From the sequence record NC_052657.1: a DNA stretch of 64,000 bases; one strand, written 5' to 3'. Made by a program: the position numbers and the translations under genes. Below the pieces are notes generated by a model that was given only the letters and a program-made list of their open reading frames with translations, had not been told where the DNA came from and searched no databases. Numbering within the stretch: the stretch's first letter is position 1; each line of letters starts with the position of its first letter. Of the stretch, positions 54,623 to 62,010 are shown in pieces. The DNA comes from Escherichia phage muut.

Positions 54623-55099
54623 ATGTCTAAACGTTTTGGTCGTAATCAAAAAAGAAAGTTAAGTGCTCAACTAGCAGCTTTGCAAAAAGAGGTTAACACT
54701 TTACAAAAAAGTGTTTGTGAACTTAAGGAACAAAACCAACTTGAAAAAGAGTGTATCCAGCTTACACAGGAAGTTATTGGTGAGTATTTTCCTTCACTAG
54801 TTCCTAAGAAGGTGGCTCTTAGGGAAAATCTACCTTTTACCTTGTCCTTGATGCAAGCAAATAATAGATTCCAAACTGAAACTGATGATTTGATGTTTGC
54901 AATGCATCAATTACATGGTTTAGAATATACAGCACAAGTGGATAAACTTCGTAACATGTTATATGTGCGGGTAGAAACACCTAAAGGTGAGACAGTAGCT
55001 TTTAATTATAATTTCCAACAGCTACCTGATCATATTATTGAACAAATTTTAAAACGAGATTTTGTTCCTATGCTTGTTAAACAAATTAAGAGAGGTTGA
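54623..55099 (+). CDS. hypothetical protein with coiled-coil N-terminus (158 aa)
   Basis: GGGGGA RBS. Confidence 0.5.
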   Translation: MSKRFGRNQKRKLSAQLAALQKEVNTLQKSVCELKEQNQLEKECIQLTQEVIGEYFPSLVPKKVALRENLPFTLSLMQANNRFQTETDDLMFAMHQLHGLEYTAQVDKLRNMLYVRVETPKGETVAFNYNFQQLPDHIIEQILKRDFVPMLVKQIKRG

Positions 55100-55100
55100 A

Positions 55101-57875
55101 ATGGCTAAGAAAGAGTTGAGCTTCACTCCAACAGAAGAGCAAACAGCTATTAAGGAGGCTTTTCCAGACCATCGCTTTTTAACTATCCAAGCTAAATCTG
55201 GATCAGGCAAAACGTCAACACTTTATTTGCTGGCTAACAGTACAGAAGATCGCATTCTTTACTTAGCTTTCAATAAAAGCATGGCAGAAGAAGCACGACG
55301 TAAGATGCCACCAAATGTAGAATGCCGTACATTGCATTCTATTTGCTATCAATTCCTGGATCATCGTTTACGTGCAAAACTGTCACGACCAGAAGGACAG
55401 TATGTTAACGTTGCAGGTACAGGTAGTGAGATAGCAAAGAAATTTAAGATTAATAATCTTATTGATAAACGAGGGAAAACACTTTTAACTCGTGCCATGA
55501 TTGGTTTAATGATCAAGCAAACAGTAGGTAAGTTTGAATTTTCGGATGATCCTTTTATCAGCCGTAAACATTTTCCTAGTGTACATCTTGCAGATATTAA
55601 AAGAAAAGGTATTAACGAACACAAACTAATTACAGAAGTAGTTAAGTATGCAAAACAATTGTGGCGAGAGCGCATTGATCCTAATACAGATACTTTGATG
55701 ACGCATGACACCTATGTAAAATTGTTTGAATTGTCTGGTGCTGATCTTGGTTATGATATTATTTTTGGTGATGAATTCCAGGATGTTAACCCTGCATTCT
55801 TGTCTATTTTGCGAAATGCTAAATCTGCAAAACAAATTGTGGTAGTTGGCGATGAATTCCAATGTGTGTCAGAAAACACGGTACTTAATACCGAGAATGG
55901 TCAGGTTACAATGAAAGACCTGCAAATCGGTGATAAGGTAGAGTCTTATTCTAATGGTAAAGTTACATTTAGAAAAGTAACAAATAAAACTTTATCTACA
56001 CGTACAAAAGGTAGGAATATTATTACTACTAAAGGTAAAACTTTAGATATGACACATAATCATCGTATTTGGGCTTCACCTTATGTTCTGAAAGATGATC
56101 AAATGGTGGTATATCTAATGTGGAGGAAAGATTTAGGTTTCCGAGTAGGAATTACTAACAAATTCGATGATAAAGAAGGTTTTTCTAAACTGGGGCAACG
56201 TACACGTTCTGAAAAAGCACAGAAATTATGGGTGTTGGATATTGTTGAAAATCGCGAAGCTGCTATGGAAAAAGAAATGGCATACAGTTTACAATATGGC
56301 ATTCCTACTTGTGTATTTGAAGCAAGTTCACGCGGCATTAATCAAGAAAGGATCAATAACATCTTTGAACAATTCGGACAAAATGGTTTTAAACTTTTAG
56401 AGGATAAAGATTATCATTTTGCTTATCCACACTGGCACAGCATCAATTGTGCAGTAGATGAAAGAAAAATGCTAACAGTGACTTTGCGAGCACAAGGTTG
56501 TAAAGGAACACAAGTTAGTTTTGAGTGGACAGAAAGTGAAATGCCGATCTATTCTTCACTGATTAAAGCAGGTGTAAGCGTAAGTGCTGCTAAATTGGAA
56601 GGTCGTTACCGTGTACGTAAATATTTCAATTCTTATCGTGAAGCATTGAGTTTTGCACAAAAGATCCTTGAAATAGTTCCGTTTGCATCTTTAAAAGAAT
56701 GCATGTCCTCTGTGAACAGTGCCAAATATAACTTAATTCCGGCAGCGGGTTTGTTTAAAGGCATGTCTGTGTTGGTAAAAGATGGTGATACTGTAACGGC
56801 AGAAGAGATTGTGGACATTGTAGATAGTGAGGGTATCTATTATGATATTGAAGTAGAGGATACTGCTAACTTCTTTGGCAATGAAATTCTTAGCCACAAC
56901 TGCATTTATCAATTTAGAGGTAGCTCTAATATGATGATTGAAACAGCTAAGTATGGGGCAGAACTTCCATTAACTGCTTGCTTCCGTTTTGGCCCCAAAG
57001 TGGCAAACATTGCCAATATGATTTTAAGCGATAAAGAACCTTTGCGTCATCCTTTGGTTGGTAAAGGCTTTGATACTGTAGTAGGTAGCTACAAATCAGA
57101 TGTTGTAGACTATACAAAACCTTACACTATCATCTTTCGCAAGAATTTAACCTTGCTTATGGAGGCAATGGATCGTATTGCAGATGGGGAAGAAATTATT
57201 ATTAACGTAGATACCAGGGATTTTATCTCTATGGTAGATAGTGTTAATGCTCTTCGGAGAGGAGATATTGAGAAAGTAAAACATGAAACTGTATTACCTT
57301 ACGCAGACTGGGATGAATTTGTTGAGTGTGCAGAGGCTGATCCAGATGCTAAACGCTTGTTAAACATCGTAGTTTCTGGTAAGGCGAACACTATAGCACA
57401 TACACTTAGAACGCATAGAAATTCTCCTACAGCAAAAGTCACACTTACTACAGCACACAAGTCTAAAGGTTTGGAGTGGGATCAGGTTATTGTTGCTAAT
57501 GATTTTCCTTCCAACTATGATAAAAAGACTGGTGAATGGGTAGGACTGGAAGAGGCAGAGCGAAACCTACTGTATGTAGCGCATACCCGTTGTGTTAAAT
57601 GCTTACAATGGAACACAACCGTACAGGAGATTATAGATATCAATCGTGTTGCAACAGAGAAAGTACCAACAAGCACCACTTTACCGATCAATGGTATTAA
57701 ACTTGGTGTATTTGGCGCTGGCACATCTCGAAAAACTGTAGAAAAATTTGTTGCAGATTCTTTTGATGGTAACTATAATCATGCACAAGCATATGAGAGT
57801 TGGCTAGAGGAAGGTGAAGGTGATTTCTTAGGTGAAATAAATCTTTTACCAGACATAAATAAACTGGTAAACTAA
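55101..57875 (+). CDS. UvrD/Rep-like SF1 DNA helicase interrupted by an intein (precursor 924 aa)
   Basis: Walker A SGSGKT; motif II FGDEFQD; motif III VVVGDEFQ / CIYQFRG split by the intein; motif V/VI TTAHKSKGLEWD, YVAHTRC. Confidence 0.75.
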   Translation: MAKKELSFTPTEEQTAIKEAFPDHRFLTIQAKSGSGKTSTLYLLANSTEDRILYLAFNKSMAEEARRKMPPNVECRTLHSICYQFLDHRLRAKLSRPEGQYVNVAGTGSEIAKKFKINNLIDKRGKTLLTRAMIGLMIKQTVGKFEFSDDPFISRKHFPSVHLADIKRKGINEHKLITEVVKYAKQLWRERIDPNTDTLMTHDTYVKLFELSGADLGYDIIFGDEFQDVNPAFLSILRNAKSAKQIVVVGDEFQCVSENTVLNTENGQVTMKDLQIGDKVESYSNGKVTFRKVTNKTLSTRTKGRNIITTKGKTLDMTHNHRIWASPYVLKDDQMVVYLMWRKDLGFRVGITNKFDDKEGFSKLGQRTRSEKAQKLWVLDIVENREAAMEKEMAYSLQYGIPTCVFEASSRGINQERINNIFEQFGQNGFKLLEDKDYHFAYPHWHSINCAVDERKMLTVTLRAQGCKGTQVSFEWTESEMPIYSSLIKAGVSVSAAKLEGRYRVRKYFNSYREALSFAQKILEIVPFASLKECMSSVNSAKYNLIPAAGLFKGMSVLVKDGDTVTAEEIVDIVDSEGIYYDIEVEDTANFFGNEILSHNCIYQFRGSSNMMIETAKYGAELPLTACFRFGPKVANIANMILSDKEPLRHPLVGKGFDTVVGSYKSDVVDYTKPYTIIFRKNLTLLMEAMDRIADGEEIIINVDTRDFISMVDSVNALRRGDIEKVKHETVLPYADWDEFVECAEADPDAKRLLNIVVSGKANTIAHTLRTHRNSPTAKVTLTTAHKSKGLEWDQVIVANDFPSNYDKKTGEWVGLEEAERNLLYVAHTRCVKCLQWNTTVQEIIDINRVATEKVPTSTTLPINGIKLGVFGAGTSRKTVEKFVADSFDGNYNHAQAYESWLEEGEGDFLGEINLLPDINKLVN
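55863..56900 (+). mobile_element. intein (346 aa) with central endonuclease-size insert
   Basis: Begins Cys (CVSENTVL), block B TLDMTHNH, ends ...FFGNEILSHN followed by Cys+1; in frame. Confidence 0.7.
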
Positions 57876-57885
57876 GGGGGTTAAA

Positions 57886-58137
57886 GTGGCAGGGTATCAT
57901 CTGAAGGAGATTAGCAAAGAGGAATATGGTTCTGTTGCTAAGATTCAAGAAGAGCTTTATGAACTTCAGGATGCTATTGATCAAGATTGCAAGCTGATGC
58001 AACTTATTGAGTTATCAGATATTGTAGGCGCTGTTGAAGGTGTTCTTGAACAGCATTTTCCTGATATGACGCTTCAAGATTTGATCACTATGTCGAACAT
58101 TACTAAACGTGCATTCCGCAATGGAGGTCGCTCATGA
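57886..58137 (+). CDS. MazG-like all-alpha NTP pyrophosphohydrolase (83 aa)
   Basis: GTG start with AAGGGGG RBS; EE..S...IQEELYELQDAI...LSDIVGAVEGVLEQ pattern. Confidence 0.4.
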   Translation: MAGYHLKEISKEEYGSVAKIQEELYELQDAIDQDCKLMQLIELSDIVGAVEGVLEQHFPDMTLQDLITMSNITKRAFRNGGRS

Positions 58138-58706
58138 ATGTTGAAGTAATAGCTCAAGCTATTGATTACTATGGTCGGTTTGCACAAATGTTGGAAGTTC
58201 CATATCTCGTGGATGCTGATATACTGGCGTACACACTACCAGAAAATAAAGAGGATCGCCCATTAGGGCATCCTAACGGTAAATATTATGTAGCCAGTGC
58301 AGAACAATCTTTCCTGCAAATGGAGAAGGATGGTTTTGAATTTGCAGCAGGTAATCCTTATATGGCACTAACACCATGTTACCGTACAGAAGAAAATTTA
58401 GATGATACTCATTTTAATATTTTCTTGAAATTGGAGTTGATTGAGTTCTATCCTGATGCTACAATTGAAGAGTATGCTAACTCTATGCGCTGTTTCTTCT
58501 CTACTTACTATGGAGTTAAAACATATTTAGTACCCACTAATATTGGGGTTGACGTAGAAGATGAATATGGTTTAGAATTAGGTTCATTCGGTATAAGGGA
58601 GTCTCCAAAAGGTCATCCTTATATCTATGCAACAGGTATTGCGGAGCCTAGGGCTTCACTGGCAATAAACCGTGTTGTAAATAAGATTCAAAGCATTAGC
58701 AAATAA
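58134..58706 (+). CDS. hypothetical protein with weak class II ligase-like motifs (190 aa)
   Basis: GGAGG RBS; CYRTEE and GIAEPR segments only. Confidence 0.4.
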   Translation: MNVEVIAQAIDYYGRFAQMLEVPYLVDADILAYTLPENKEDRPLGHPNGKYYVASAEQSFLQMEKDGFEFAAGNPYMALTPCYRTEENLDDTHFNIFLKLELIEFYPDATIEEYANSMRCFFSTYYGVKTYLVPTNIGVDVEDEYGLELGSFGIRESPKGHPYIYATGIAEPRASLAINRVVNKIQSISK

Positions 58707-58718
58707 GAGGAGAATAGA

Positions 58719-59153
58719 ATGTCTATTGTGACACAAATGAAAGCAGATCGTATCTTAGCACGTACAACCGATAAGGGTGCTTTTGCTTTGTTAACTAATA
58801 TTATTGGTGAGTTTGACCTTGCTCGTACTCAAAAGGCAAATCTAAATAAATCAGAAGATGATATTATGATTAACATTGTTAAGATTGGTATTGCACACGC
58901 TAAAGAGGAACTAGACTCGCTTAAGAAAGTTAATGCCTCCATTAGCAAATGTGAGCGAGCTATGCGTGATATCACCATTCTGGAAAAATATTTGCCAGAA
59001 ATGCTATCTGAAGATGATCTTCGAGCTATTGCTGAAGAATTTGCCTTGACAGGCAAGAAAATGCCAGATATGATGAAACACCTTAAAGCAGAGTATCCGA
59101 ATCAATATGATGGAAAACTTGCTTCTACCATTGCAAAAGAAATTTTAAACTAA
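58719..59153 (+). CDS. GatB/YqeY-domain protein
   Basis: LEKYLPEMLSEDDLRAIAEE and DGKLASTIAKEIL match the YqeY family pattern. Confidence 0.65.
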   Translation: MSIVTQMKADRILARTTDKGAFALLTNIIGEFDLARTQKANLNKSEDDIMINIVKIGIAHAKEELDSLKKVNASISKCERAMRDITILEKYLPEMLSEDDLRAIAEEFALTGKKMPDMMKHLKAEYPNQYDGKLASTIAKEILN

Positions 59154-59170: not shown

Positions 59171-60121
59171 ATGATTGCATTTTACGCTAATAAACTGGAA
59201 GTTAAAAAAGCAGCAGAAGAGATGGGTATCCTGCATATTCTTAACGAAGCAATTCACAAGAGTTTTGGTTACACAACTGAAGCAGAAATCAATGATCTGA
59301 TTCACAGTGTTAATGATTTGTTCTTCTACCCTAACTTTCTACAGCAGTTAGATGGTTGTGGATTTGAATATATGGAGCTTCATCCTGAATATACATTTAT
59401 GGAAGTAACACCTGAAGGTTTTCTGGAGATTATTCGTACTGAATATCTTGCTAAAGAGGATAAAGAAAAAGATATGGCTGAAAAAGTACAACTGACTGTG
59501 CATAATACGTGTTTCCTGGATACTGAGGCCACGGAAGAAAATATTAATTATCTGCTTTCCGTTTGTAATCCTCGTTGTCCACAACCACATTGGAAAAATG
59601 CAGATCATTATCTAATGTATTCAACTGAAGAAAACATTACTTTCTTCGATGAAAACAGTGGTATTAATGGTGCACATAAGAATTCTCCATATAGGAAAGA
59701 TCGGTTTGTAGTTGATGTAAAAACATTTACTAAACTGTTTGAGGAGTATTATTCAAAAAATGAAAGTAAGACTGAATCTTCACCAAAACCACGTTTTCGC
59801 CGACCGCGTAAACCTGTGCCTACTCGTTCTGTAAGTTATGTTCGTATCATTTACACTACGCAGCAGGTATATACTCTTAAGAACGTAAGCACTCTTACTG
59901 TACAAGAAGATGTAATTAATATTGTGCGTAATAATGTTATTACAGAGGGTATTGAGGAAAAGATTATGTCTGTTATCGATCCTAAACTTGTTATGGCAAT
60001 CATTATTAATGAACCAAAAGGTGTAACAACATTGTTCCGAAATATTCATGGTACTTGGGAAACTCAAGTTGACGGTTTGACTTCTGACGGTTGTACACGT
60101 ATTACCAAAAACCTTGACTAA
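59171..60121 (+). CDS. hypothetical protein (316 aa)
   Basis: AAGGAG RBS. Confidence 0.5.
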   Translation: MIAFYANKLEVKKAAEEMGILHILNEAIHKSFGYTTEAEINDLIHSVNDLFFYPNFLQQLDGCGFEYMELHPEYTFMEVTPEGFLEIIRTEYLAKEDKEKDMAEKVQLTVHNTCFLDTEATEENINYLLSVCNPRCPQPHWKNADHYLMYSTEENITFFDENSGINGAHKNSPYRKDRFVVDVKTFTKLFEEYYSKNESKTESSPKPRFRRPRKPVPTRSVSYVRIIYTTQQVYTLKNVSTLTVQEDVINIVRNNVITEGIEEKIMSVIDPKLVMAIIINEPKGVTTLFRNIHGTWETQVDGLTSDGCTRITKNLD

Positions 60122-60169
60122 GATCAAGGACAATCTTACGAAAAAGATTTAAAATAAAGATCCACCCTA

Positions 60170-60198
60170 AAGCCAGCTTAATGCTGGCTTTTATTTTC
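60170..60198 (+). terminator. rho-independent terminator
   Basis: AAGCCAGC-TTAAT-GCTGGCTT then TTATTTTC. Confidence 0.55.
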
Positions 60199-60210: not shown

Positions 60211-62010
60211 ATGACCCAAAAACTATATGAGGATGTAATCGGATTCCTCGAACAAACATCCGAAGAATTTACTCGTGAAAATGCAAACAAACCTGCAATG
60301 ATTGTTAATACTCACCGAGACTTACTAGCAGGTATCCTAAGCAAGCACATGGCAATGACCCATATTTTACCGGAAGATCTAGCAGAATGGCATAAAAGTG
60401 GGTATGGTCACATTCACGATTTAGATTATTTACTCTCACCTCTAACTAATTGTTGCCTGGTAAATTACCAAGATATGCTTGAGAACGGTTTCCGTATTGG
60501 TAATGCACATATTGAAAAACCAAAATCTATTGGCGTAGCAACTACTGTCCTAACTCAAATTATTCAAGCAGTAGCTTCTAGCCAATATGGTGGACAAACT
60601 TGTGCACATATTGATACTGGGCTTAGTCAATACGTTAAAGCAAGTTTTAACAAAATATATGCCGATGTTGGCGATTATGATATTGCTATGCGTATGGTAG
60701 ATAAACAGGTTTACGATGCAATGCAAACTTTAATCTACCAGGTGAACACCCTAATGAGTGTAAATGGTCAGTCACCTTTTATAACAATTAGTTTAGGTTT
60801 GGATACCTCTGCTTTTGGTAGAATGATCACTAAAAACTACCTAATGGTGCACAAACAAGGATTAGGAAAAGATAGGGTAACTCCTGTGTTTCCTAAAGTT
60901 ATCTTCTTCTTGGAAGATGGTGTTAACATGAAAGCTGGCGATCCAAACTATGATTTGAAGCAACTGGCAATGGAGTGTTGTGCTGAACGCATTTATCCTG
61001 ATTTTATCTCTGTACCTTTAAACAAAGAAGTTACAGGATCTTCAGATGGTCGCGTCACAAGCATGGGTTGCCGTAGTTTCTTGTCATACTATGCAACAGA
61101 GCAAGGTGAAAAATATGATGGTCGTTTCAATTTAGGCGTAGTTTCTTTAAACTTACCTATCATTGCAGCAGAGTCCCGTGAAAAGGGCATCTTATTTACT
61201 GAACTGTTGGAACAACATATGGAGATGGCGTATAAGGCACATATGCTACGTGTTAACCGTATTAGACATACCAAAGCATCTCAAAACCCTACATTGTTTA
61301 TGGAAGGGGCTTTAGCTCGACTAGAAGCTAATGAAGAGATTGGTAAACTATTCGAAGGTGGTTATGCCTCTATTAGTATCGGTTATGTAGGTTTAGCAGA
61401 AGCTATGGAGATTTTATACCCAGGTAACACCAATCCAAAAGCAATGGGTAAAAACATCCTTCAATATATGAAGGATATCTGTGGCACATTTAAAGAACGT
61501 TCTGGTTTAGCTTTTAGTTTGTATGGAACACCAGCAGAATCCTTGTGCTATAAATTTGCCAAAGCATTAAATGATCGCTATCCTGGTTCTATTGATCGTG
61601 ACTACTTGACAAACTCTTTCCATCAACCTGTGTGGATGCACACTACCCCGTTCCAAAAGTGGGATTATGAGGAAGGTTTTGCACAAATCAGTAATGGTGG
61701 GAACATAGGTTATGTAGAAACACCAAACCTTAAAAATAACTTGCAAGCACTGGAAACTCTTGTAGATTATGCCTACAACAAAATTCCTTATTTTGGCGTG
61801 AACCAACCTGTAGATCAGTGTTTCAAATGTGGTTTTCATGGTGAATTTAAGGCAACAGCTAAAGGCTTCGAGTGTCCAAGTTGTGGCAATCATGAGGAAG
61901 AATCTATATCTGTAATCAGAAGAGTGTCAGGATATCTTTCTGCCCCTAACTCTCGCCCTTATAATAAAGGTAAAATGCAAGAGGTATTAGAAAGGGAGAA
62001 ACATTTTTGA
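60211..62010 (+). CDS. nrdD: anaerobic ribonucleoside-triphosphate reductase (class III)
   Basis: ATG with GGAGG RBS; C-terminal glycyl-radical motif RVSGYL and CxxC...CxxC zinc site. Confidence 0.9.
   Translation: MTQKLYEDVIGFLEQTSEEFTRENANKPAMIVNTHRDLLAGILSKHMAMTHILPEDLAEWHKSGYGHIHDLDYLLSPLTNCCLVNYQDMLENGFRIGNAHIEKPKSIGVATTVLTQIIQAVASSQYGGQTCAHIDTGLSQYVKASFNKIYADVGDYDIAMRMVDKQVYDAMQTLIYQVNTLMSVNGQSPFITISLGLDTSAFGRMITKNYLMVHKQGLGKDRVTPVFPKVIFFLEDGVNMKAGDPNYDLKQLAMECCAERIYPDFISVPLNKEVTGSSDGRVTSMGCRSFLSYYATEQGEKYDGRFNLGVVSLNLPIIAAESREKGILFTELLEQHMEMAYKAHMLRVNRIRHTKASQNPTLFMEGALARLEANEEIGKLFEGGYASISIGYVGLAEAMEILYPGNTNPKAMGKNILQYMKDICGTFKERSGLAFSLYGTPAESLCYKFAKALNDRYPGSIDRDYLTNSFHQPVWMHTTPFQKWDYEEGFAQISNGGNIGYVETPNLKNNLQALETLVDYAYNKIPYFGVNQPVDQCFKCGFHGEFKATAKGFECPSCGNHEEESISVIRRVSGYLSAPNSRPYNKGKMQEVLEREKHF

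Follow-up and report, generated by a model that had tools for sequence, protein, structure and literature searches.

The genome of Escherichia phage muut (NC_052657.1), an rV5-like E. coli myovirus, carries three consecutive genes at positions 57,886 to 59,153 of the 64,000-nucleotide stretch analyzed here, which we call the window; all of its features described below lie on the plus strand. We focus on the first two of these genes, a conserved pair that joins a seryl-tRNA synthetase (SerRS)-like protein to a small HisE/MazG-like one. The first gene (57886-58137) starts with GTG and encodes an 83-aa protein, p83; the second (58134-58706) starts with ATG and encodes the 190-aa p190; and the third (58719-59153) encodes the 144-aa p144. 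Each is preceded by a strong Shine–Dalgarno sequence 5-6 nt upstream of its start (AAGGGGG at 57874-57880, GGAGG at 58123-58127, and GAGGAG at 58707-58712, respectively), and the start codon of p190 overlaps the stop codon of p83 as ATGA, suggesting that translation of the two is coupled. All three proteins match PHROG families (p83, phrog_6408, E 2e-43; p190, phrog_4806, E 1e-70; p144, phrog_1460, E 6e-37), and the region is 98-99% identical in more than 50 sequenced Justusliebigvirus phages, including Nernie, alia, and phi92. By these sequence criteria, the three open reading frames (ORFs) are, as the original prediction had proposed, real genes and not chance ORFs. In public records, p83 is usually labeled "hypothetical," and p190 carries the conflicting labels "seryl-," "histidyl-," "putative tRNA synthetase," and "hypothetical."

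A conserved pair of p83 and p190

A first search with p190 returned 59 homologues, all of them stand-alone proteins of ~180-200 aa on large viral contigs. Both in a 229-kb metagenomic phage and in a distant Vibrio jumbo phage, the gene immediately upstream of the p190 homologue proved to encode a p83 homologue. To survey this pairing, 80 further viral loci were fetched with a p190 profile and all of their ORFs were examined in iterated profile hidden Markov model (HMM) searches. Of 83 loci, 80 have a p83 homologue encoded on the same strand as p190, and in nearly all of these the two genes abut: most often p83 comes first and the genes overlap by 1 or 4 nt, and in about a dozen loci p83 directly follows p190. 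In five of the surveyed loci both domains were encoded by one ORF. No p83 homologue was detected within the fetched flanks of the p190 homologue in L018, L021, L056, L097, and L099. An exhaustive p190 profile search gathered 1,598 clusters at 50% identity (1,064 at E<=1e-30), nearly all of 175-200 aa, with a minority of 260-274 aa that proved to be clean p190-p83 fusions; a search seeded with one fusion yielded more than 40 others. Among ~50,700 sequenced phages, 261 records carry p83 and 271 carry p190, and the counts per genus match. When neighboring genes within 5 kb were clustered, no third conserved gene emerged, the best family occurring in 6 of 66 dereplicated groups. Together, the variation in gene order, the repeated fusion, and the co-inheritance provide strong evidence that p83 and p190 make up one functional, and probably physical, unit. 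An AlphaFold model of the natural fusion P0150, standing in for the p83 and p190 of the window, is consistent with such a unit: it is predicted to be one rigid body (mean predicted local distance difference test score 96.4, predicted template modeling score 0.90), with a C-terminal domain formed by an extended arm bearing an invariant G-Y-H followed by three helices. We found no study recognizing the pair in the literature; a phage genome paper reads homologous genes separately and by name only (PMC8953757).

Single-sequence searches of PDB sequences, Pfam, and NCBIfam with p190 gave nothing significant, and its assignment needed family profiles and the structure model. The weak class II ligase-like character originally noted for the middle protein is borne out at the level of fold and can now be pinned to a SerRS core. 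Invariance in p190 was read from alignment A1 (42 sequences) and, where named, also from A4 (81 sequences), both sampled from the family of ~1,600 clusters. The class II signature, comprising V22/P23, Y83-R84-x-E86...H93...F97-x-K99-x-E101, and G168...R173, is invariant or nearly so in both, and p190 has the class II antiparallel beta-sheet fold. The motif 1 strand V22-P23-Y-L-V26 (58197-58211) is the same as the VPYLV of E. coli SerRS, with hhalign placing it at residues 195-199, and V22 and P23 are nearly invariant. S55-A-E57-Q-S-F60 (58296-58313) is the putative counterpart of the serine-binding TxE motif, reading SAE for the TAE of Aquifex SerRS; S55, E57, Q58, and F60 are invariant, and S55 and E57 correspond to T237 and E239 of the E. 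coli enzyme. Motif 2, T80-P-C82-Y-R84-T-E86...H93...F97-L-K99-L-E101 (58371-58436), parallels TPCFR268SE...F287DKVE291 of SerRS, with T80, C82, R84, F97, K99, and E101 invariant. A putative Mg2+/ATP site, E148-L-G150-S151-F-G153-I-R155 (58575-58598), resembles E355-I-S-S358 of SerRS by motif pattern only, and E148, G150, S151, and G153 are invariant. Motif 3, A-T167-G-I-A-E-P-R173-A-S (58629-58658), aligns locally to G-S391-G-L-A-V-G-R397, with T167, P172, R173, and S175 invariant.

Profile searches point the same way. The best PDB sequence match of the p190 profile is Aquifex SerRS (E 9e-5), while histidyl-tRNA synthetase (HisRS) accounts for none of its 35 PDB sequence matches; hhalign aligns the family to residues 186-344 of E. 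coli SerRS with 87.7% probability; and the family HMM also finds the canonical SerRS genes near fused homologues in two cellular contigs. Pfam tRNA-synt_2b does not match the p190 of the window and weakly matches 2 of 42 family members (E 0.06). In the crystal structure of E. coli SerRS with a seryl-adenylate analogue, T237, E239, R268, E291, and S391 contact the seryl moiety and F287 stacks against the adenine; R397 is the arginine of motif 3 and E355 the Mg-binding glutamate (10.1101/586255). SerRS residues T237, E239, R268, F287, E291, S391, and R397 correspond to S55, E57, R84, F97, E101, T167, and R173 of p190, every one of them invariant in A1 and A4. By this residue-level correspondence, p190 is a class II core of ~180-190 aa descended from SerRS of the bacterial/eukaryotic type, with a seryl-adenylate site that is apparently intact, and the "histidyl" label is wrong, the closest sequence and structure relatives of p190 being neither HisRS nor HisZ. 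The protein begins ~20 residues before motif 1, has no Pfam match to the Seryl_tRNA_N arm, and also lacks an anticodon-binding domain; judged by these missing domains, it is not an ordinary seryl-tRNA synthetase, as the parts that hold tRNA are gone. We also considered whether the pair might be a HisZ plus HisE remnant of the histidine pathway and rejected this, as p190 is SerRS-like, not HisRS-like, and no HisG is encoded nearby. Some homologues carry Cys-rich, zinc-ribbon-like extensions, C-terminal in p190-like proteins and N-terminal in p83-like ones (P0078, P0072, P0037, P0128, L030 6564-7034, and L023 5030-5476).

Members of the p83 family share invariant Y4, H5, I9, K19, E22, E23, E26, E42, D45, and R82. 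The codons for K19 to D45 (57940-58020) encode a putative Mg2+/phosphate motif, K-I-x-E-E-x-x-E-x-x-D...E-L-S-D, in which K19, E22, E23, E26, E42, and D45 are invariant columns of the p83 alignment (A2). The all-alpha NTP pyrophosphohydrolases (HisE, MazG, and the dimeric dUTPases) are marked by a metal-binding acidic pattern, ExxE-x(12-28)-ExxD, on consecutive helices. In p83, the pattern EExxE-x15-ExxD aligns to the metal-site helices of HisE (2a7w, 1yxb) and of the MazG-like protein 1vmg, and E22, E23, and E26 together with E42 and D45 fall on helices 1 and 2 of the modeled domain. Pfam PRA-PH (HisE) is matched by 29 of 39 p83 relatives (best E 2.4e-5) and MazG by 4 of 39, and the top 17 PDB matches of the p83 profile include three HisE chains, one HisIE chain, and one MazG-like protein, all of them weak matches (E 0.05-0.5 for HisE). 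Membership of p83 in the HisE/MazG all-alpha NTP pyrophosphohydrolase superfamily is thus moderately supported. The "MazG-type" description first given to p83 is acceptable for the superfamily, and HisE is the nearer family. An acyl or peptidyl carrier protein was tried as an identity for p83 and rejected, since the serine of its ELSD, S44, is not conserved and many members have A or C there. Four jumbo-phage loci encode a 275-315 aa protein with the p83-like domain at its C-terminus (L035 5043-5990, L043 5175-6002, L053 4953-5858, and L051 6552-7421). The ~200-aa N-terminal domain of these proteins ("GLGFIQLKL...HFW...E-x-HDHR...") has no Pfam match and was found nowhere else in the loci, and its His cluster may be metal-binding and cupin-like.

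Distribution and genomic context of the pair

Carriers of the pair include rV5-like phages, Acinetobacter, Morganella, and Providencia phages of ~165 kb, the Microcystis phage Ma-LMM01, Caulobacter and Brevundimonas jumbo phages, and many uncultivated jumbo phages of up to 578 kb. Fused forms occur on giant-virus-like contigs and in a few DPANN and candidate phyla radiation (CPR) genomes. Occurrence in cellular genomes is rare, with 20 loci among ~185,000 species genomes, and cellular carriers retain a full SerRS beside the fused form. Eukaryote-like genes (RING/TRAF zinc fingers, RGS, dsRBD) accompany two of the fused homologues, L087 and L089, and one of the two is entered in UniRef as "viral metagenome"; these contigs probably belong to giant viruses of eukaryotes.

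Of 66 dereplicated phage groups, 9 have a tRNA gene no more than 2 kb from the pair, and in 5 of the 66 tRNA genes flank the pair on both sides, placing it inside a phage tRNA array; as such arrays should take up only a few per cent of these genomes, the pair looks enriched in them. The commonest neighboring family is RlaP, an "RNA repair pathway" nucleotidyltransferase (6 of 66 groups), a Thg1-like tRNA 5'-end repair enzyme is encoded near the pair in three groups, and in one locus a class I synthetase lies 3 kb away. In the window, two elements that are separately associated with tRNA, the pair and YqeY, adjoin. Two single loci may be mentioned here: a transfer-messenger RNA (tag ANDETFGETALAA) at L072 4111-4503 is ~1.2 kb from the pair, and L054 10956-11030 is an amber-suppressor tRNA (anticodon CUA), called "Pyl" by ARAGORN, which hints at stop-codon recoding in that phage.

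A different setting is seen in DPANN (L086, L088, L090), on a Woesebacteria contig (L091), and on an 835-kb contig, each with a small radical SAM gene adjoining or overlapping the fused gene. These radical SAM genes encode unclassified proteins of 221-256 aa with a CxxxCxxC motif (L086 8808-9509, L088 6822-7487, L090 8791-9474, and L091 7225-7995). Those of L086 and L088, which share 59% identity, match MoaA, a tungsten-cofactor maturase, and viperin best, though weakly, and a scan of both ruled out NrdG. No KamA or EpmB match was found for this neighbor, and neither the phage loci nor the window has a radical SAM gene of the DPANN/CPR type. The fused gene and its radical SAM neighbor may form a three-part pathway in DPANN/CPR symbionts. 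Nearby genes encode ThyA, DHFR, NDK, and a PRK-family kinase in L086, and a NUDIX protein, a nucleoside deoxyribosyltransferase, and NrdR on the 835-kb contig.

Possible roles of the pair

At a level of confidence a little short of even, we favor a reading in which the pair is a single viral enzyme whose likeliest acceptor is the 3' end of tRNA, with YqeY independent of it and with no tie to nrdDG. By this reading, p190 would bind ATP and L-serine (or a close analogue) and form seryl-AMP, and p83 would add a second Mg2+-dependent site, at which a nucleotide triphosphate or pyrophosphate group would be bound or cleaved. Either the seryl group or the adenylate would then be handed to a nucleotide-type acceptor held by p83, with the 3'-terminal adenosine of tRNA as the favored candidate and a free nucleotide as runner-up. 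The pair would thereby serve in charging, protecting, or repairing tRNA ends and would be carried by large phages beside their own tRNAs. What favors the tRNA 3' end is the occurrence of tRNA arrays and RNA-repair genes around the pair, together with the adjacent YqeY. A YqeY-type domain adds tRNA affinity to GlnRS in Deinococcus, and in Justusliebigvirus the adjacent YqeY could act in trans as a tRNA-binding helper, though the pair in general would not need it. A more specific proposal, that the pair is the smallest natural class II core, in which a HisE/MazG-like subunit replaces the tRNA-binding domains, and that it serylates, protects, or repairs tRNA 3' ends or makes a seryl- or adenylyl-nucleotide, is possible but doubtful. 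If correct, protection of tRNA 3' ends might serve, for example, to counter host toxins by which these ends are modified or depleted, and the pair would represent a self-contained module for counter-defense or translation support common to large phages, giant viruses, and DPANN/CPR symbionts.

Several observations weigh against the favored reading. The SerRS arm that recognizes tRNA is absent from p190, and the motif 2 loop, from E86 to F97, has 10 residues as opposed to 16 in E. coli SerRS. Conservation of the serine-contacting residues argues for descent and a similar ligand but is no proof of serine itself, and SerRS-like amino acid:carrier protein (aa:CP) ligases are reported to activate Gly or Ala. 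For p83, what keeps the superfamily assignment at moderate support is that the window protein scores 15.0 bits against Pfam PRA-PH/MazG, under the cut-off of 21.3, and that hhalign finds no significant match between its profile and E. coli HisIE or MazG taken as single sequences. p83 also looks like a nucleotide enzyme and not an RNA binder, and both proteins are acidic (median isoelectric points 4.8 and 5.1), as is E. coli SerRS. In 49 of 66 groups there is no tRNA within 6 kb, no tRNA gene is present in the 64-kb window, and the enrichment was judged against a rough expectation that tRNA arrays make up 2-5% of a large phage genome. Finally, the nucleotide-metabolism and radical SAM neighbors would fit a small-molecule role equally well.

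Such a role is the first alternative to be weighed, and we regard it as unlikely but worth serious attention. Here, the pair would make or convert a free nucleotide derivative: seryl-AMP and an NTP held by p83 might give an Ap4N-type dinucleoside polyphosphate or a 2'/3'-O-seryl nucleotide, or p83 might supply a nucleoside monophosphate from an NTP for ligation. MazZ, which supplies dGMP to PurZ in Z-genome phages, offers a precedent for coupling a phage MazG-like enzyme to a ligase, although the PurZ fold, that of adenylosuccinate synthetase, is unrelated to p190. A small-molecule product would suit the NTP-pyrophosphohydrolase-type family of p83, the acidity of two proteins that lack a tRNA-binding domain, the nucleotide genes nearby (nrdDG in the window, and those of L086 and the 835-kb contig), and the weak resemblance of the DPANN/CPR radical SAM protein to the NTP-acting MoaA and viperin. 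However, it leaves the embedding in tRNA arrays and the RlaP and Thg1 neighbors unexplained, the nucleotide-gene neighbors are not recurrent, and the radical SAM gene is missing from every phage locus, the window included. We also know of no class II synthetase-like enzyme with a free nucleotide as acceptor, which we count against this alternative.

A regulatory function, in which p190 senses serine, ATP, or seryl-AMP and allosterically controls p83 as an NTP pyrophosphohydrolase, would match nucleotide pools to the amino-acid status of the infected cell. HisZ with HisG provides the precedent for a truncated class II paralogue acting as a subunit of another enzyme. HisZ, however, has lost its catalytic residues and is catalytically inactive, whereas p190 keeps all of its own: R84 and R173, which would contact the alpha- and gamma-phosphates of ATP, as well as F97, E148, and S151, are invariant in A1 and A4, favoring catalysis. 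We accordingly think a purely regulatory pair improbable; it and a protein-acceptor role, taken up below, are less likely because the catalytic residues are conserved and no conserved acceptor residue or gene accompanies them.

The original prediction held that the MazG-like, ligase-like, and YqeY proteins and nrdDG form one nucleotide-pool or tRNA module. Its claim of a GatB/YqeY-domain protein as third gene product is upheld, as p144 matches Pfam YqeY (PF09424) over residues 38-143 (E 4e-8; 33.8 bits for a cut-off of 27), in line with the YqeY/GatB C-terminal domain. p144 is a stand-alone protein of 144 aa in which the GatB catalytic (cradle) domain was not found; because it has the YqeY tail domain only, the name "tRNA amidotransferase" is, by domain content, an over-annotation. 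In favor of a module, the genes are contiguous, co-oriented, and tightly spaced in the window, the same order ending in nrdDG recurs in more than 50 near-identical phages, and other genomes link YqeY, and separately the pair, to tRNA arrays. However, only 2 of 83 loci, from close relatives, have YqeY beside the pair. ESCO5, of the sister genus Phapecoctavirus, has helicase, p83, p190, a homologue of the 316-aa gene described below, and nrdDG, with YqeY absent, while Klebsiella phage FKP3, of the same genus, has at that place helicase, YqeY, and the 316-aa homologue with neither the pair nor nrdDG. YqeY occurs in 152 phage records, most of them without p190. In Vibrio phage Ceto (L113, NC_042094.1 72553-79891; Demerecviridae), which lacks the pair, the YqeY protein gp112, labeled "tRNA amidotransferase," is encoded in the middle of a 21-tRNA array. 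The 316-aa gene and a terminator-like hairpin precede nrdD, and the ribonucleotide reductase (RNR) genes adjoin the pair in rV5-like phages only. By these comparative data, the module is largely refuted, and joint action of the four elements now seems quite improbable; p144 is an independent neighbor outside the conserved pair, its distribution among phages being largely independent of it.

Modification of a protein or carrier, in the manner of EpmA or the aa:CP ligases, would have p190 charge a protein side chain, a carrier, p83, or a translation factor. EpmA (PoxA/GenX) and GluQRS (YadB) are truncated aminoacyl-tRNA synthetase paralogues that modify EF-P or tRNA queuosine, respectively, and they differ from p190 in deriving from LysRS (class IIb) and the class I GluRS and in being cellular, not viral, and without a pyrophosphohydrolase-like partner. 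The aa:CP ligases derive from the zinc-dependent, methanogen-type SerRS, are ~300 aa long, and have an adjacent phosphopantetheinylated carrier as their substrate. p190 is 10% identical to one of them, Bradyrhizobium Bll0957 (PDB 3mey), its best matches are instead to bacterial/eukaryotic-type SerRS with a TxE-type motif, and no sign of methanogen-type (zinc) descent was found in it. With S44 of p83 variable, there is no phosphopantetheine site, and the conserved p83 pattern is instead the acidic EExxE/ExxD motif. No carrier-protein gene lies nearby, neither carrier-protein nor EF-P-like genes recur near the pair, and p83 is the only recurrent neighbor of p190; the radical SAM neighbor, at 221-256 aa and with no match to KamA or EpmB, is no better a pointer to such chemistry and is absent from phages. 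This role thus appears very unlikely. The reading implied by PHROG and GenBank product names and by the genome paper on homologues (PMC8953757), namely an unrelated bona fide HisRS or SerRS, a house-cleaning MazG, and a GatB-type amidotransferase, is hardly credible and is refuted as far as domain architecture shows, given a p190 of 190 aa as opposed to 430 in E. coli SerRS without the Seryl_tRNA_N arm, the lack of HisRS among its PDB matches, the full SerRS kept beside the fused form, a p144 without the GatB catalytic domain, and obligate pairing and fusions that contradict independent functions.

Among these possibilities, a tRNA-end enzyme remains our preferred reading, and by its domain composition the pair is not a canonical seryl- or histidyl-tRNA synthetase. 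In comparison with SerRS, p190 is under half the size, has no coiled-coil arm and a motif 2 loop six residues shorter, and has an obligate HisE/MazG-like partner, separate or fused, of a kind that SerRS never has; in cellular carriers this core coexists with a normal SerRS. p83 shares with HisE and MazG the small helical format and the EExxE-x(15)-ExxD motif but differs from them in its three predicted helices and invariant N-terminal GYH arm and in never being a free-standing house-cleaning enzyme, as it always stands beside a SerRS-like core. We class the pair as a truncated synthetase paralogue set apart by its minimal size and its HisE/MazG-like partner. Each of the truncated paralogues EpmA, GluQRS, HisZ, AsnA, and the aa:CP ligases has revealed unexpected chemistry. 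Viewing the two genes as one enzyme would correct a widespread mis-annotation, and a natural class II core of ~180 residues with three motifs and a seryl-adenylate site would bear on the debate over the minimal ancestral synthetase. Phages phi92, alia, and their relatives offer a tractable E. coli system in which to examine phage action on tRNAs or nucleotides beyond tRNA genes.

The ribonucleotide reductase neighborhood

The trio had been described as sitting directly before the anaerobic RNR; nrdD and nrdG do lie downstream, but two elements intervene. The first is a gene of 316 aa between p144 and nrdD (59171-60121), which has 461 aa in ESCO5 (L084 4051-5436). In PHROGs and GenBank it is labeled "ribonucleotide reductase" or "class III RNR," and kinship with NrdD was rejected, as the two proteins show no similarity; Pfam and NCBIfam have no match to the 316-aa protein either. 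The RNR label is probably a mis-annotation propagated to a protein that is syntenic with RNR genes. The second is a terminator-like hairpin with a 9-bp stem and a T-rich tail (60169-60191), found in a consensus scan as a pattern match only; it lies between the 316-aa gene and nrdD and splits the apparent transcription unit of the trio from nrdDG. The mechanical ORF start of nrdD, at 60181, falls inside the hairpin, and a second ATG follows at 60211. The true start is probably at 60211, because the Pfam NRDD match begins at residue 23 counted from there.

Upstream of the trio, the UvrD-type helicase gene (55062-57875) carries an intein (Pfam Intein_splicing and Hint, residues ~254-600 of 924), and its ESCO5 orthologue is intein-free and has 530 aa. 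In addition, four records entered as "Campylobacter phage" with C. jejuni as host (MG065639, MG065645, MG065656, and MG065689) are 98.5% identical here to the Justusliebigvirus phages of E. coli, and their host assignment looks doubtful.

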